DNA of 64,000 bases from NCBI RefSeq assembly GCF_050320075.1, contig NZ_CP190022.1. The stretch is one strand, 5' to 3'. The notes beneath the pieces were generated by a model, which was not told the origin of the DNA, did no database searches, and worked only from the letters and a program-made list of their open reading frames with translations. Source of the DNA: Escherichia coli (GTDB lineage: Bacteria > Pseudomonadota > Gammaproteobacteria > Enterobacterales > Enterobacteriaceae). Below, piece by piece: positions 16,260-31,902 of this stretch. Both the position numbers and the translations under genes were made by a program. Position 1 is the stretch's first letter. Every line of letters starts with the position of its first letter.

Positions 16260-16511
16260 TCACACATCCTCTGCCGTTTCCCCCAGTTCATTTTCCAGTC
16301 GCCTGATGATATCTGCCTTACGCATCCCCTGCATGTGAGGCAGCAGGTCACGGACTGAAAGAGCCTGGGTGGTCCTCCAGACGGTGACGTCCACCTGTTC
16401 CGCATTTTCCCAGGCGTGCCATGTTCTCTGCGTCACGCCAAATTCTCTGGCCGCTTTTTCGCGTGACCAGAGCATGCTTTTTCGCCAGATTCGCAGTTCC
16501 CAGCCGGTCAT
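16260..16511 (-). CDS. Small helix-turn-helix transcriptional regulator (83 aa)
   Basis: Product contains an HTH-like segment (AAREFGVTQRTWHAWEN); sits directly next to two palindromic operator-like sites. Confidence 0.55.
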   Translation of the reverse strand: MTGWELRIWRKSMLWSREKAAREFGVTQRTWHAWENAEQVDVTVWRTTQALSVRDLLPHMQGMRKADIIRRLENELGETAEDV

Positions 16512-17940: not shown

Positions 17941-17948
17941 TTAAAAAG

Positions 17949-17984
17949 AAAAGCCCTGGTATTTATGCCGGGGCTTTTTTTTCT
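17949..17984 (+). terminator. Rho-independent terminator after the 17089 ORF
   Basis: AAAAGCCCTGG...CCGGGGCTTTTTTTT hairpin with T-run. Confidence 0.6.
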
Positions 17985-18025
17985 GTAATCATCATAATCT
18001 CAGAACATGATGTGACATTGTCACA

Positions 18026-18361
18026 TCAATTGTTGTTCATATCGATGCCATCTTTTCTGCCTGAATCTGTCTTTTTAGGTGCTGTTTTAGAGGAAGAACG
18101 GCGGGATGGTTTTTTCGATTCTGCTTCCCGAATAATGTCACGAAGTGCCTTCTCTCCTACTTCATACCCTGCATTTTTGAGCGTGTCACGAACATCTGCC
18201 AGTGTATAACCCTTTGTCCTTACCAGGACAATGATGTCATCACGAATGGCATCAAGAAAATCACGCAATGTTTTCCGTTGAGCGGTGAGGTCCGGCAATT
18301 CCGATAAGGCAGATTTTGCCAGCTGGATGTCATCATCTGAGTAAAATTTTTTAGAAGCCAT
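18026..18361 (-). CDS. Hypothetical small protein with basic C-terminal tail (111 aa), divergent from oriT
   Basis: ATG at 18361 with GGAGAG about 10 nt upstream (track ORF starts at GTG 18367); C-terminus KKPSRRSSSKTAPKKTDSGRK suggests nucleic-acid binding. Confidence 0.5.
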   Translation of the reverse strand: MASKKFYSDDDIQLAKSALSELPDLTAQRKTLRDFLDAIRDDIIVLVRTKGYTLADVRDTLKNAGYEVGEKALRDIIREAESKKPSRRSSSKTAPKKTDSGRKDGIDMNNN

Positions 18362-18399
18362 TAGCACTTTCTCTCCGTTTCATGTTGAAGTCTGATTTT

Positions 18400-18590
18400 A
18401 TCATCAAAAACTGACTCCTGGCAGGGCTGCGCCCTGCCTCTGCCGTCTGCATAAGACTATGATGCACAAAAATAACAGGCTATAATGGCCTGAAAAACGG
18501 GACAGGATGTGGGAATGTCGGACCGCGCACGCGCACTCAGACATTCCCCACCTGGTCAGGGCTTTGCCCCGACACCCCGGTAAGGAGCAG
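18400..18590 (-). other. Origin of transfer (oriT), IncI/IncP-like, with predicted nick core on the minus strand
   Basis: Immediately upstream of nikA; minus-strand reads ...GGGGAATGTCTGAGTGCGCGTGCGCGGTCCGACATTCCCACATCCTG/TCCCG with the ATCCTG nick-core motif (plus 18503-18508) and a 12-bp-arm inverted repeat (18511-18522 / 18537-18548). Confidence 0.75.
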
Positions 18591-18593
18591 ACC

Positions 18594-18926
18594 ATGAGTG
18601 AGAAGAAAACCCGAACGGGCAGTGAGAACAGGAAGAGAATTGTAAAATTCACGGCGAGATTCACGGAGGATGAGGCTGAAATCGTAAGAGAAAAAGCGGA
18701 GTCAAGTGGACAGACGGTTTCAACATTTATACGAAGCTCTTCACTGGATAAGGTGGTTAACTGCCGTACTGACGACCGTATGATTGATGAGATTATGCGT
18801 CTTGGCCGCCTTCAGAAGCATCTGTTTGTGGAGGGAAAACGCACTGGTGATAAGGAGTATGCAGAGGTTCTTGTTGCCATTACTGAATATGTCAATGCTC
18901 TGCGAAGAGACTTAATGGGACGCTGA
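18594..18926 (+). CDS. nikA: Relaxosome accessory protein NikA (ribbon-helix-helix, oriT-binding)
   Basis: AAGGAG RBS; product (MSEKKTRTGSENRKRIVKFTARFTEDEAEIVREKAESSGQTVSTFIRSS...RLGRLQKHLFVEGKRTGDKEYAEVLVAITEY) matches NikA. Confidence 0.85.
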   Translation: MSEKKTRTGSENRKRIVKFTARFTEDEAEIVREKAESSGQTVSTFIRSSSLDKVVNCRTDDRMIDEIMRLGRLQKHLFVEGKRTGDKEYAEVLVAITEYVNALRRDLMGR

Positions 18927-18937
18927 GATAACTGCTG

Positions 18938-21658
18938 ATGAATGCCATTATTCCGCACAAAAGACGTGACGGCAGGTCTTCCTTTGAAGACCTGATTGCG
19001 TACACGTCTGTGCGGGATGATGTGCAGGAAAATGAGCTCACAGAAGACAGCGAAATCAAGAGTGATGTCCCTCACCGCAACCGTTTCAGACGGCTTGTTG
19101 ATTATGCAACACGCCTGCGTAACGAAAAATTTGTCTCCCTGATTGATGTGATGAAAGACGGCAGTCAGTGGGTAAATTTCTATGGCGTAACCTGTTTCCA
19201 TAACTGCAATTCACTGGAAACAGCTGCTGAAGAGATGCAGTACAAGGCGGACAAAGCTGTTTTTTCCCGTAATGATACAGACCCCGTTTTCCACTACATT
19301 CTTTCCTGGCCTGCGCATGAAAGCCCGCGTCCTGAGCAGCTTTTTGACTGTGTGCGTCACACACTGAAATCTCTTGAACTCTCAAAACATCAGTACGTGG
19401 CTGCCGTTCATACGGACACGGATAATCTGCATGTGCATGTTGCCGTGAATCGTGTACATCCTGAAACTGGTTATATTAACTGGCTTTCCTGGAGCCAGGA
19501 AAAACTCAGTCGTGCATGCCGTGAACTTGAACTTAAGCACGGATTTGCGCCGGATAATGGCTGCTTTGTGCATGCACCCGGCAACCGTATTGTGCGCAAA
19601 ACAGCGCTGGTACGTGAGCGCCGTAATGCCTGGCGACGCGGGAAAAAGCAGACGTTCAGGGAATATATTGCGCAGATGTCGATTGCCGGGCTGCGTGAAG
19701 AGCCCGCACAGGACTGGTTATCTTTGCATAAACGGCTGGCCAGTGATGGTCTGTATATCACGATGCAGGAAGGGGAACTGGTGGTGAAGGATGGCTGGGA
19801 CAGAGCGCGGGAAGGTGTTGCACTCAGTTCGTTCGGACCGTCATGGACAGCTGAAAAACTGGGGCGGAAACTGGGGGAATATCAGCCTGTACCGACAGAT
19901 ATTTTCAGTCAGGTGGGGACACCCGGTCGTTATGATCCGGAAGCCATAAACGTGGATATCCGGCCGGAAAAAGTGGCAGAAACGGAGAGTCTGAAACAGT
20001 ACGCCTGTCGTCACTTTGCTGAACGCTTACCGGAAATGGCGCGAAATGGTGAACTGAAAAGTTGCCTGGCTGTACACCGTACTCTGGCAGAGGCGGGATT
20101 ATGGATGGGGATTCAGCACGGGCATCTGGTACTGCATGATGGATTTGATAAACAACAGACACCAGTACGTGCAGACAGTGTGTGGCCGTTAATGACGCTG
20201 GATTATATGCAGGATCTGGATGGTGGATGGCACTCTGTACCGAAGGATATTTTTACTCAGGTTATACCCGAAGAACGATTCCGGGGACACAGTATTGGCA
20301 CTCAGGCTGTCAGCGATTACGAATGGTATCGCATGAGGATGGGCACTGGTCCACAGGGTGCCATAAAGCGTGAACTGTTTTCCGATAAGGAAAGTCTGTG
20401 GGGATACGCTCTTATTCAGTGCAGGAGCCAGATTGAAGAGATGATAGCTGGCGGGGATTTCAGCTGGCAGGCATGTCATGAGATGTTTGCGCGTAAAGGG
20501 CTTATGCTGCAGAAACAGCATCATGGTCTCGTGATTGTGGATGCGTTTAATCATGAACTGACACCGGTGAAGGCCAGCAGTATCCACCCGGATTTGACGT
20601 TATCCCGGGCCGAGCCTCAGGCCGGGCCATTTGAAATTGCGGCTGCAGATATTTTCGAACGGGTGAAGCCTGAATGTCGCTACAATCCGGAACTTGCTGC
20701 CAGTGATGAAGTGGAGCCCGGCTTCCGGCGCGATCCTGAGCTGCGTCGTGAGCGCCGTGAAGCCCGTGCAGCTGCGCGGGAAGATTTGCGTGCGCGTTAT
20801 CTTGCATGGAAGGAACACTGGCGTAAACCCGATTTACGTTACGGCGAACGGTTGCGGGAAATTCATGCTGCCTGCCGTCGTCGCAAGGCTCATATCCGCG
20901 TGCAGTTCCGGGATCCACAATTGCGTAAACTGCATTACCATATTGCAGAAGTGCAACGTATGCAGGCGCTGATCAGACTGAAGGAAAATGTCAGGGAAGA
21001 GCGACTGGCGCTGATGGCGGAGGGTAAGTGGTATCCGTTGTCCTACCGGCAGTGGGTGGAACAACAGGCGGCGCAAGGCGACAGAGCTGCAGTGTCACAG
21101 CTCCGAGGCTGGGATTATCGCGATCGTCGCTCGCGTAATAAGGATAAAAGACGCACAACTAATGCTGATCGTTGTGTCGTTCTCTGCGAACCCGGAGGAA
21201 CGCCACTTTTTAATAATGTTGCAAAACTTGAAGCTCGTCTTCAGAAAAATGGAAGTGTTCATTTCAGGGATACGCGGACAGGAAAAAATGTCTGTACGGA
21301 TTACGGAGATCGGGTTGTGTTCTACCATCACACGGACCGAAATGAACTGGCAGAGAAGCTTGATTTAATTGCGCCAGTTCTGTTCAGCCGCAACGGAAAG
21401 CTTGGTTTTGAGCCGGAAGGTTCATACCAGCAGTTTAATGATGTGTTTGCAGAAATGGTGGCCTGGCACAATGCAGCGGGAATAACCGGAAACGGACACT
21501 TCACCATTACTCGTCCGGACGTGGATTTGCACCGTCAACGCAGTGAGCAGTATTACCGGGAATATATCAGACAGCAGACCCGTTTATCGGAGAGCCATGA
21601 TGATAATTATACGTTACGGCAGGAGAAAACATGGGAGCCACCATCACCTGGAATGTAA
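18938..21658 (+). CDS. nikB: Relaxase NikB (MOBP family)
   Basis: 906-aa product with the MOBP metal-binding motif HTDTDNLHVHVAVNRVH near the N-terminus; directly downstream of nikA. Confidence 0.9.
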   Translation: MNAIIPHKRRDGRSSFEDLIAYTSVRDDVQENELTEDSEIKSDVPHRNRFRRLVDYATRLRNEKFVSLIDVMKDGSQWVNFYGVTCFHNCNSLETAAEEMQYKADKAVFSRNDTDPVFHYILSWPAHESPRPEQLFDCVRHTLKSLELSKHQYVAAVHTDTDNLHVHVAVNRVHPETGYINWLSWSQEKLSRACRELELKHGFAPDNGCFVHAPGNRIVRKTALVRERRNAWRRGKKQTFREYIAQMSIAGLREEPAQDWLSLHKRLASDGLYITMQEGELVVKDGWDRAREGVALSSFGPSWTAEKLGRKLGEYQPVPTDIFSQVGTPGRYDPEAINVDIRPEKVAETESLKQYACRHFAERLPEMARNGELKSCLAVHRTLAEAGLWMGIQHGHLVLHDGFDKQQTPVRADSVWPLMTLDYMQDLDGGWHSVPKDIFTQVIPEERFRGHSIGTQAVSDYEWYRMRMGTGPQGAIKRELFSDKESLWGYALIQCRSQIEEMIAGGDFSWQACHEMFARKGLMLQKQHHGLVIVDAFNHELTPVKASSIHPDLTLSRAEPQAGPFEIAAADIFERVKPECRYNPELAASDEVEPGFRRDPELRRERREARAAAREDLRARYLAWKEHWRKPDLRYGERLREIHAACRRRKAHIRVQFRDPQLRKLHYHIAEVQRMQALIRLKENVREERLALMAEGKWYPLSYRQWVEQQAAQGDRAAVSQLRGWDYRDRRSRNKDKRRTTNADRCVVLCEPGGTPLFNNVAKLEARLQKNGSVHFRDTRTGKNVCTDYGDRVVFYHHTDRNELAEKLDLIAPVLFSRNGKLGFEPEGSYQQFNDVFAEMVAWHNAAGITGNGHFTITRPDVDLHRQRSEQYYREYIRQQTRLSESHDDNYTLRQEKTWEPPSPGM

Positions 21659-26542: not shown

Positions 26543-26734
26543 GGGGATTCCTCCATAGATGAATGGATAAATTTCGGGATTAAGTCGGGTGGCATGAATG
26601 CGAATCAGCGCCGGTAATAACCGGACAGGAATGAGTTCAACAGGACATTTTCACAGAGAAGAGCGTGGGAGACAGGTACAAAAAAACCGACTGGTGAGGC
26701 CGGTTTTTTTGCGATTCCGGGGTGGAGTTGGTGG

Positions 26735-26766
26735 CTCTGACCGGAGGAAGTCTCTTTTCAACTAAC
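26735..26766 (+). repeat. Direct repeat A (about 32 bp, CTCTG-CCGGAGGAAGTCTCTTTTCA-CTAAC)
   Basis: Repeated with two mismatches at 26969-27000, 234 bp downstream. Confidence 0.8.
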
Positions 26767-31424: not shown

Positions 31425-31608
31425 AGTATTTCCTTCCAGGTCATTATTACTTCCAGATTTAACATGATGTCTGTAACCATAAAATAATGAACGTGTTCCG
31501 GGAATCCTTGCCGTGTAGTTTCCCGTAAAAATACTGTTGTGCATTACATGTCATTAGGTGGAAACCGATTGTGGCAGACTGAAAATCGATTAGAATAGCG
31601 GCGGGCGC

Positions 31609-31902
31609 TTGAGGCTGTATGCTGAAAGCGTTTTGTGGACGGCATGCAGCAGAAAGCCCCAGGCGATTTTTTTATCAATCAACCCAGGGCCCACTGTAAT
31701 GCCTCAACAACATTATAGTAGCCCGATGACGGCCGAAAGGCAATGGAGGGGCTGCGATGCCACAACGAACGTTTTTAATAATGTTAATCGTCGTCTGTGT
31801 GACGATACTGTGTTTTGTCTGGATGGTGAGGGATTCGCTTTGCGGATTTCGTATCGAGCAGGGAAATACAGTGCTTGTGGCAACGTTAGCCTACGAAGTT
31901 AA
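31609..31902 (+). CDS. pndC: Overlapping translational-coupling reading frame of the hok-family module (mok/PndC-like)
   Basis: 97-codon ORF overlapping the toxin ORF in another frame, as in hok/mok and pndA/pndC. Confidence 0.55.
   Translation: MRLYAESVLWTACSRKPQAIFLSINPGPTVMPQQHYSSPMTAERQWRGCDATTNVFNNVNRRLCDDTVFCLDGEGFALRISYRAGKYSACGNVSLRS

Follow-up and report, generated by a model that had tools for sequence, protein, structure and literature searches.

What is the role of the small protein encoded immediately beside the origin of transfer (oriT), back to back with the relaxosome genes nikA and nikB, on a conjugative plasmid of Escherichia coli? We addressed this question in a window of 64,000 nucleotides (the whole stretch of DNA that was analysed), the host replicon of which is an I-complex conjugative plasmid with best matches to IncK2/Z, MOBP, MPF_I plasmids at 99.8% identity. 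A preliminary description had placed a 111-residue open reading frame on the minus strand, transcribed away from oriT, and had proposed that its product might be a relaxosome accessory or a nucleoid-associated factor rather than an early gene. The reading frame lies where it had been placed (Table 1), with the listing of open reading frames putting its start two codons earlier, at a GTG at 18367. Its divergence from the oriT side is likewise borne out: the gap between the gene and nikA is 232 bp long and contains oriT, and nikA-nikB run in the opposite direction.

Judged by its sequence, the gene is yggA of R64, alias Hp23 of pESBL. The window protein is identical at 110 of 111 positions to O3K_25952 of pESBL-EA11 (‘Protein YggA’, Hp23) and shares 97% identity with an annotated yggA copy. 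The segment was found in 2106 plasmid records, and when 1.84 billion representative proteins were searched exhaustively with HMMER, a YggA family of 126 clusters emerged at E ≤ 1e-3, nearly all of 90–145 residues. Over the first 78 codons, the window gene and its diverged homolog on pTB502 are separated by 49.5 synonymous and 24.5 non-synonymous differences (dN 0.15, dS saturated). The gene is thus real and under strong purifying selection, with dN far below dS. An alignment read by eye shows that the pTB502 copy also keeps the layout of the putative yggA promoter (CTGACA / TGaTAGAAT), with differing bases.

Table 1. Coordinates of features in and around yggA, oriT, and nikAB, given as positions in the window.
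Feature	Position	Strand	Remarks
Bidirectional hairpin terminator	17945..17982		Inverted repeat I1 with A and T runs on its flanks; serves yggA and the convergent DUF4942 gene
yggA coding sequence	18026..18361	-	111 aa; ATG at 18361, TGA stop at 18026-18028
Disordered Lys/Arg/Ser-rich tail of YggA	18029..18115	-	Residues 83-111, SKKPSRRSSSKTAPKKTDSGRKDGIDMNNN; begins where the recognition helix ends
Four-helix domain of YggA with helix-turn-helix	18116..18361	-	Residues 1-82; helices 9-20, 32-50, 54-63, 70-82
Shine-Dalgarno GGAGAG	18371..18376	-	9 nt upstream of the yggA ATG; read from sequence
Putative yggA promoter	18395..18424	-	Sigma-70-like; -35 CTGCCA 18424-18419, 18-nt spacer, extended -10 TGaTAAAAT ending at 18395; consensus scan
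8-bp inverted repeat of oriT	18420..18438		GGCAGGGC-TGC-GCCCTGCC; overlaps the yggA -35; kept in five plasmids
Conserved block, candidate YggA operator	18450..18468		CATAAGACTATGATGCACA, holds TGCAT-N9-ATGCA; between the two divergent promoters
TATAAT, putative nikAB -10	18481..18486	+	Upstream of the nick site; invariant in the five-plasmid alignment; read from sequence
oriT core	18499..18548	-	Presumed nick motif CACATCCTG/T (slash at the nick), nick ~18503/18502; 18-nt inverted repeat I2 (18511-18548) = NikA site
nikA	18594..18926	+	Relaxosome accessory, ribbon-helix-helix; Pfam NikA-like E 3.4e-19, NCBIfam MobA E 4.6e-31
nikB	18938..21658	+	MOBP relaxase; open reading frame and annotation of near-identical plasmids

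Profile databases were of little help in assigning a function. No Pfam or NCBIfam model matches the yggA protein, and the 59 family members that were aligned gave nothing but sub-threshold noise against the same collections (DDE transposase, IS3/IS21, Clr5, RecX). Thousands of RefSeq and UniRef records nevertheless label the protein ‘molybdopterin-guanine dinucleotide biosynthesis protein MobC’. Neither a MobC nor a molybdopterin profile from Pfam or NCBIfam matches it at E ≤ 1, and the name thus lacks support. The RefSeq label looks like an annotation error in which the plasmid gene name mobC, as used on IncL/M plasmids, was mis-expanded. With MobC of RSF1010/ColE1-type plasmids (Pfam MobC) the yggA protein shares only the name, as a profile match is absent. 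A single-sequence phmmer search of the PDB with the yggA protein returned nothing.

We then turned to structure prediction and family profiles. An AlphaFold2 model built from the 59-sequence family alignment, which replaced an earlier run with eight close sequences (pLDDT 63.6), comprises a four-helix domain followed by a disordered tail. Confidence (pLDDT) is approximately 87–94 over most of the core, 71 in the loop at residues 21–30, and about 59–65 in the tail. The last helix of the domain is the putative recognition helix, and residues 1–82 carry the conserved motifs LPDL and KGY. The Lys/Arg/Ser-rich C-terminal tail noted in the preliminary description was recovered in residues 83–111, with a pI of 10.6 as compared to 5.1 for residues 1–82. 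The sequence of the tail varies across the family, but in 58 of the 59 members it carries a net positive charge (median +4). This flexible tail extends from the recognition helix and probably adds non-specific contacts to DNA.

The family profile matched two entries of interest among PDB sequences: the DNA-binding domain of StbA of plasmid R388 (7pc1_A, E 5e-4) and the RpoN-box helix-turn-helix (HTH) domain of sigma-54 (E 2e-4). As the RpoN-box scores as well as StbA by sequence, part of the StbA signal may be generic HTH similarity. A word-indexed search with a StbA fragment gave only two proteins, and the StbA set was consequently rebuilt from plasmid loci, yielding nine genes from IncW, IncP-9-like, Xanthomonas, Moraxella, Cupriavidus, Paraburkholderia, and IncI2 plasmids, most of which adjoin stbB. 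Alignment of the YggA family to these nine genes with hhalign gave a probability of 94.9% and a score of 52 over 71 columns, whereas the reversed control scored 11.7 and 20 column shuffles scored at most 15.7. When only close relatives of YggA were included, the probability fell to 59–61% (score 32–34), and with distant members only it rose to 96.7%. Hence the YggA family grades into StbA. The alignment pairs the invariant Arg74 of YggA with Arg61 in the recognition helix of StbA, and S82-K83-K84-P85 of YggA with K69-K70-A71-R72 of StbA, at the C-terminal end of the StbA basic run R66–R72. A Foldseek search of the PDB with the YggA model gave nothing significant (7pc1 at probability 0.44, E 2.9). 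Taken together, we consider it likely, from these profile alignments, that residues 1–82 of YggA are remotely homologous to the HTH domain of StbA.

YggA thus shares two features of the StbA family, namely an N-terminal tri-helical HTH domain homologous to StbA(1–75) and a gene that flanks nic on its leading side and points away from the MOB operon, as in the R388-type locus. In other respects the two differ. The StbA proteins span 122–165 residues and have 65 or more residues in their C-terminal region, as compared to the 29-residue tail of YggA; in R388 StbA (~140 residues), the C-terminal half is needed for partition and for control of conjugation, and YggA has no such half. The face of StbA(1–75) is reported to be strongly basic, whereas the folded core of YggA is acidic. 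In R388, stbA is followed by stbB, which encodes a deviant Walker-A ATPase, and by stbC. Neither gene lies 3′ of yggA, where the gene map has the terminator and then the convergent DUF4942 gene. Finally, the curated NCBIfam model for StbA (NF041290) matches eight of the nine StbA genes but none of the 59 YggA-family members.

By published accounts, StbA acts as a repressor at promoters of the leading region, and R388 transfers 50-fold more when StbA is lost. Guynet et al. delineated by PSI-BLAST a StbA family that includes TraK of RP4, MobC of pTF-FC2, and YciA of R721, with all of the genes first on the leading side of nic and with TraK binding between nic and traK. The StbA papers that we examined list PTUs W, N1, P1, P9, Q1, and I2, with I1 and L/M absent, and in the library that we searched we found no publication that joins orf35, the IncM homolog of yggA considered below, to StbA.

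Homologs of YggA at 30–47% identity are divergent to nikA/mobA and a relaxase gene at six loci (L002, L003, L004, L005, L016, and L017), and at a seventh (L021) the homolog is divergent to a relaxase gene while a NikA-like gene was not called. These seven loci derive from pOXA-48 (IncL), Klebsiella oxytoca, K. pneumoniae MPF_I, and Tatumella plasmids and from three metagenomic contigs. YggA of the window matches this YggA/Orf35 family across the entire folded domain, including LPDL and KGY, and its gene likewise opens the leading region, with nikA and a MOBP relaxase gene divergent from it on the far side of oriT. The Orf35 homolog of pOXA-48 aligns with YggA at 40% identity over 73 residues (E 3e-13). 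On one of the metagenomic contigs (L016, 3177-5112), a distant, 144-residue member is followed by a gene for a ParA-like ATPase, a third gene, and a coupling-protein gene, which is a layout like that of stbABC/traKLM and bridges the YggA and StbA families. Another distant member sits within an IncQ-like mob/rep module.

The reality of the gene, its position, fold, homology, and tail conservation, and the lack of stbB and of any repeat array are results of this analysis; its dispensability for transfer and the repressor phenotype of the IncM homolog come from the literature. Orf35 from IncM plasmid pCTX-M3 (termed ‘MobC’ in IncL pOXA-48-type plasmids) has 121 residues as compared to 111 in YggA, carries a basic tail as YggA does, occupies the same position with nikA-nikB divergent across oriT, and was reported to be 32% identical to YggA of R64 (PMC6112013). 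Deletion or replacement of orf35 increased nikA, nikB, and traH mRNA about 40-, 23-, and 80-fold, and deletion increased mobilisation of an oriT plasmid more than 200-fold while leaving self-transfer unchanged (PMC6112013). Complementation in trans was weak and condition-dependent (PMC6112013), and thus a cis effect of the deletion is possible. The authors proposed repression, saw no DNA-binding motif (PMC6112013), and later called the mode of regulation unknown. In IncL/M plasmids nikAB heads a long tra operon, so that Orf35 controls the secretion system too, whereas in the window nikAB is a stand-alone two-gene operon that meets a convergent trbC gene. Given this difference in layout, the phenotype of orf35 may not carry over to yggA.

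In an alignment of five plasmids, the conserved non-coding blocks are the 8-bp repeat of oriT together with CTCTGCCGTC; CATAAGACTATGATGCACA; TATAAT; the nick region; and GGTCAGGGCTTnGCCCCGACACCCC. The 8-bp repeat has been described as identical to that of R64 (PMC3817090). The second of these blocks, CATAAGACTATGATGCACA, is nearly invariant among the five plasmids even as its flanks diverge, with one substitution each in L023 and pTB502, and it represents a candidate operator for YggA, although this assignment is a guess. The TATAAT was not called by our promoter scan because a good -35 is absent. The nick-region motif CACATCCTG/T and the nick position (~18503/18502) were assigned by reference to the oriT of R64 and RP4. 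This motif is kept in all relatives, and the repeat arms of the NikA site change by lineage.

Based on these observations, YggA is very probably an oriT-associated DNA-binding protein. Our best reading, for which we regard the case as somewhat stronger than the case against, is that it is an oriT-proximal repressor of nikAB that is remotely related to StbA. YggA would bind the conserved stretch of ~60 bp between the yggA and nikAB promoters, adjacent to the nick site on its leading side, and from there would repress the relaxosome operon nikA-nikB and probably also transcription of yggA itself. Such repression would keep the supply of relaxase low, and hence also the mobilisation of oriT-bearing DNA, and would be re-established in a new host when the plasmid becomes double-stranded. 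The binding of DNA by YggA, the operator site, nikAB as the target in the window plasmid, and the timing in a new host are inferred.

An alternative is that YggA is a positive relaxosome factor like TraK, which would bind and bend the DNA between nic and yggA and aid NikA/NikB in nicking or unwinding, so that the frequency of transfer would depend on it. TraK of RP4 and MobC of pTF-FC2 are reported StbA relatives at the same position, and TraK, a part of the relaxosome, boosts RP4 transfer strongly. TraK is reported to bind between nic and traK, and the DNA between nic and yggA is conserved in the five-plasmid alignment. Against this stand the genetics. In a transposon-sequencing (TnSeq) analysis of pESBL, the yggA gene, 99% identical to that of the window, scored 0.99 as non-essential, 0.00 for maintenance, and 0.01 as required for transfer, as compared to required-for-transfer scores of 1.00 for nikA and nikB and 0.72 for oriT. 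TraK stimulates RP4 transfer whereas yggA is dispensable in pESBL, and deletion of orf35 did not lower conjugation and raised mobilisation. The proposal in the preliminary description of a relaxosome accessory that promotes transfer is contradicted by these data, and we consider a TraK-like role quite unlikely; rather, YggA is not needed for transfer and is, from this combined analysis, most likely a repressor of the DNA-nicking genes. Against the repressor reading, insertions in yggA were not flagged as transfer-enhancing in the same screen, although a Hft hotspot dominated its library.

It is also conceivable that YggA is a positioning or partition adaptor of the StbA type that tethers the oriT region to the nucleoid through its basic tail and balances vertical inheritance against conjugation. 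By structure and by profile YggA matches StbA best, a basic tail is kept across the YggA family, and StbA positions R388 on the nucleoid without an NTPase of its own. However, the sites of StbA in R388 are two arrays, each with five direct repeats of 9 bp, and a comparable array is absent from the yggA locus. Tandem Repeats Finder (TRF) detected no iterated repeats in the window, and the motif of the StbA-binding repeat (stbDR) is unclustered. A StbA-type centromere built from stbDR (YTGCATCAT) was rejected for this reason, as there is a near-match at 18459-18467 but matches are otherwise scattered and form no array. Direct 9-mer pairs number one in the window, as compared to a shuffle mean of 2.4, and seven homologous intergenic regions are likewise at or below shuffle level; R388, as a positive control, gave 58 pairs (shuffle mean 10.7, shuffle maximum 24). 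A gene for StbB and a C-terminal domain of StbA length are lacking too. Moreover, StbA loss destabilises R388, whereas I-complex plasmids have their own par system, and when maintenance of pESBL was probed by TnSeq with oriT deleted, the Type Ib par region alone was depleted. The nucleoid-associated role raised in the preliminary description, understood as a StbA-type nucleoid or centromere function, is therefore weakened, and we judge such an adaptor very unlikely. YggA might instead act as a regulator or a nucleoid-associated protein whose targets lie elsewhere, in other leading-region operons or among host genes, or the gene might be a conserved passenger without a role in transfer control. 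StbA does regulate several leading-region promoters, and yggA of IncI plasmids has no known phenotype. However, within the 64-kb window the 19-bp block and TGCAT-N9-ATGCA each occur just once, which offers no sign of a regulon. In seven diverged loci with different cargo, moreover, the gene stays linked to the relaxase operon, and purifying selection on yggA is strong. These observations render targets elsewhere, or a passenger, unlikely.

The repressor reading has a consequence for the time at which YggA would act. The nick motif is on the minus strand, which is therefore the transferred strand, and yggA enters the recipient ahead of every other gene. The sense strand of yggA is the transferred one, and the gene is thus not readable from the incoming single strand, in keeping with the earlier suggestion that it is not an early gene; ssb, psiB, and ardA, by contrast, lie on the plus strand. 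The accompanying claim that yggA is on the opposite strand to the other leading genes holds for these three; it does not hold for an HTH gene at 16260-16511, which is likewise on the minus strand. This gene encodes an 83-residue leading-region regulator like HTH_31/HTH_3 (Pfam E 7e-5, under the gathering score) and, like yggA, is not readable from the incoming single strand. Since conventional promoters require double-stranded DNA, we infer that YggA appears in a transconjugant only after synthesis of the complementary strand.

A bolder extension, which we regard as doubtful, is that YggA-type proteins represent a stripped-down StbA lineage, with neither an ATPase partner nor a centromere array, that acts as a ‘double-strand sensor’ switch. 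The gene arrives in the recipient before all other DNA, but in an orientation that single-strand promoters cannot serve, and its product would be made only once a complementary strand is present. YggA would then turn off, at oriT, the operon that encodes the relaxase and might also tether oriT to the nucleoid by its basic tail, which would end the transfer-competent state and limit re-nicking or retransfer. YggA would likewise set the capacity of a donor to mobilise oriT-only plasmids.

The gene was already known and named, and a phenotype has been measured for its homolog. What is newly proposed here is its fold and its placement as a short, StbA/TraK-like HTH protein without a StbB partner or a repeat array, along with a mechanism for the Orf35/YggA effect and the flagging of an apparent RefSeq annotation error. 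Plasmids of the I-complex and of IncL/M are important vehicles for ESBL and carbapenemase genes, and this oriT-adjacent protein has had no functional annotation in either, under a RefSeq name that is apparently wrong. Its placement with StbA offers a testable mechanism for holding down relaxase expression and could explain why deletion of the IncM homolog gives strains that mobilise 100- to 1000-fold better. It also suggests that a single loss-of-function mutation could create better mobilisers of small oriT-only plasmids. The theme of StbA, a first-entering, oriT-adjacent HTH protein that restrains transfer, would in turn extend to MPF_I/MOBP12 plasmids, a group absent from the lists in the StbA papers that we examined.

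Several further observations were made in and around oriT. Copies of the oriT core alone, corresponding to 18494-18579 of the window, are present at 76–95% identity on several E. coli and E. albertii plasmids of 1.5–2 kb. These appear to be oriT-only hitch-hikers that need NikAB in trans, and a YggA-type repressor might set their mobilisation. At 18553-18580, between the oriT inverted repeat and the ribosome-binding site of nikA, the stretch GGTCAGGGCTTnGCCCCGACACCCC(G)G is almost invariant even where YggA and NikA are only 30–47% identical (pOXA-48, K. oxytoca, Tatumella). Words resembling ATGATGC in three homologous intergenic regions were judged to be chance occurrences, as their distances from nic differ.

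At the other end of yggA, in the stretch 18005-18028, a perfect 10+10-bp palindrome, TGATGTGACA-T-TGTCACATCA, overlaps the stop codon. Its reading on the transferred strand, GACAATGTCACATCATGT, is nic-like (18005-18022) and agrees with the repeat arm and nick region of oriT, GACATTCCCACATCCTGT, at 14 of 18 positions. The palindrome is invariant in five I-complex plasmids, one of which has unrelated DNA beyond it; its single-strand fold has an energy of -10.5 kcal/mol (z -2.2), and it shows no co-variation with the repeat of the NikA site. It could be a pseudo-nic, a transfer-termination site, or an mRNA 3′ hairpin. A CRP site at this palindrome (18008-18028) was rejected, since the spacing is N5 rather than N6.

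Elsewhere in the window, Rfam models matched a sok antitoxin RNA at 31603-31759 on the plus strand (123.7 bits) and an AgrB-family antisense RNA at 26678-26765 on the minus strand (52.8 bits). These represent the hok/sok- and pnd-type killer systems that were to be expected on the plasmid backbone.
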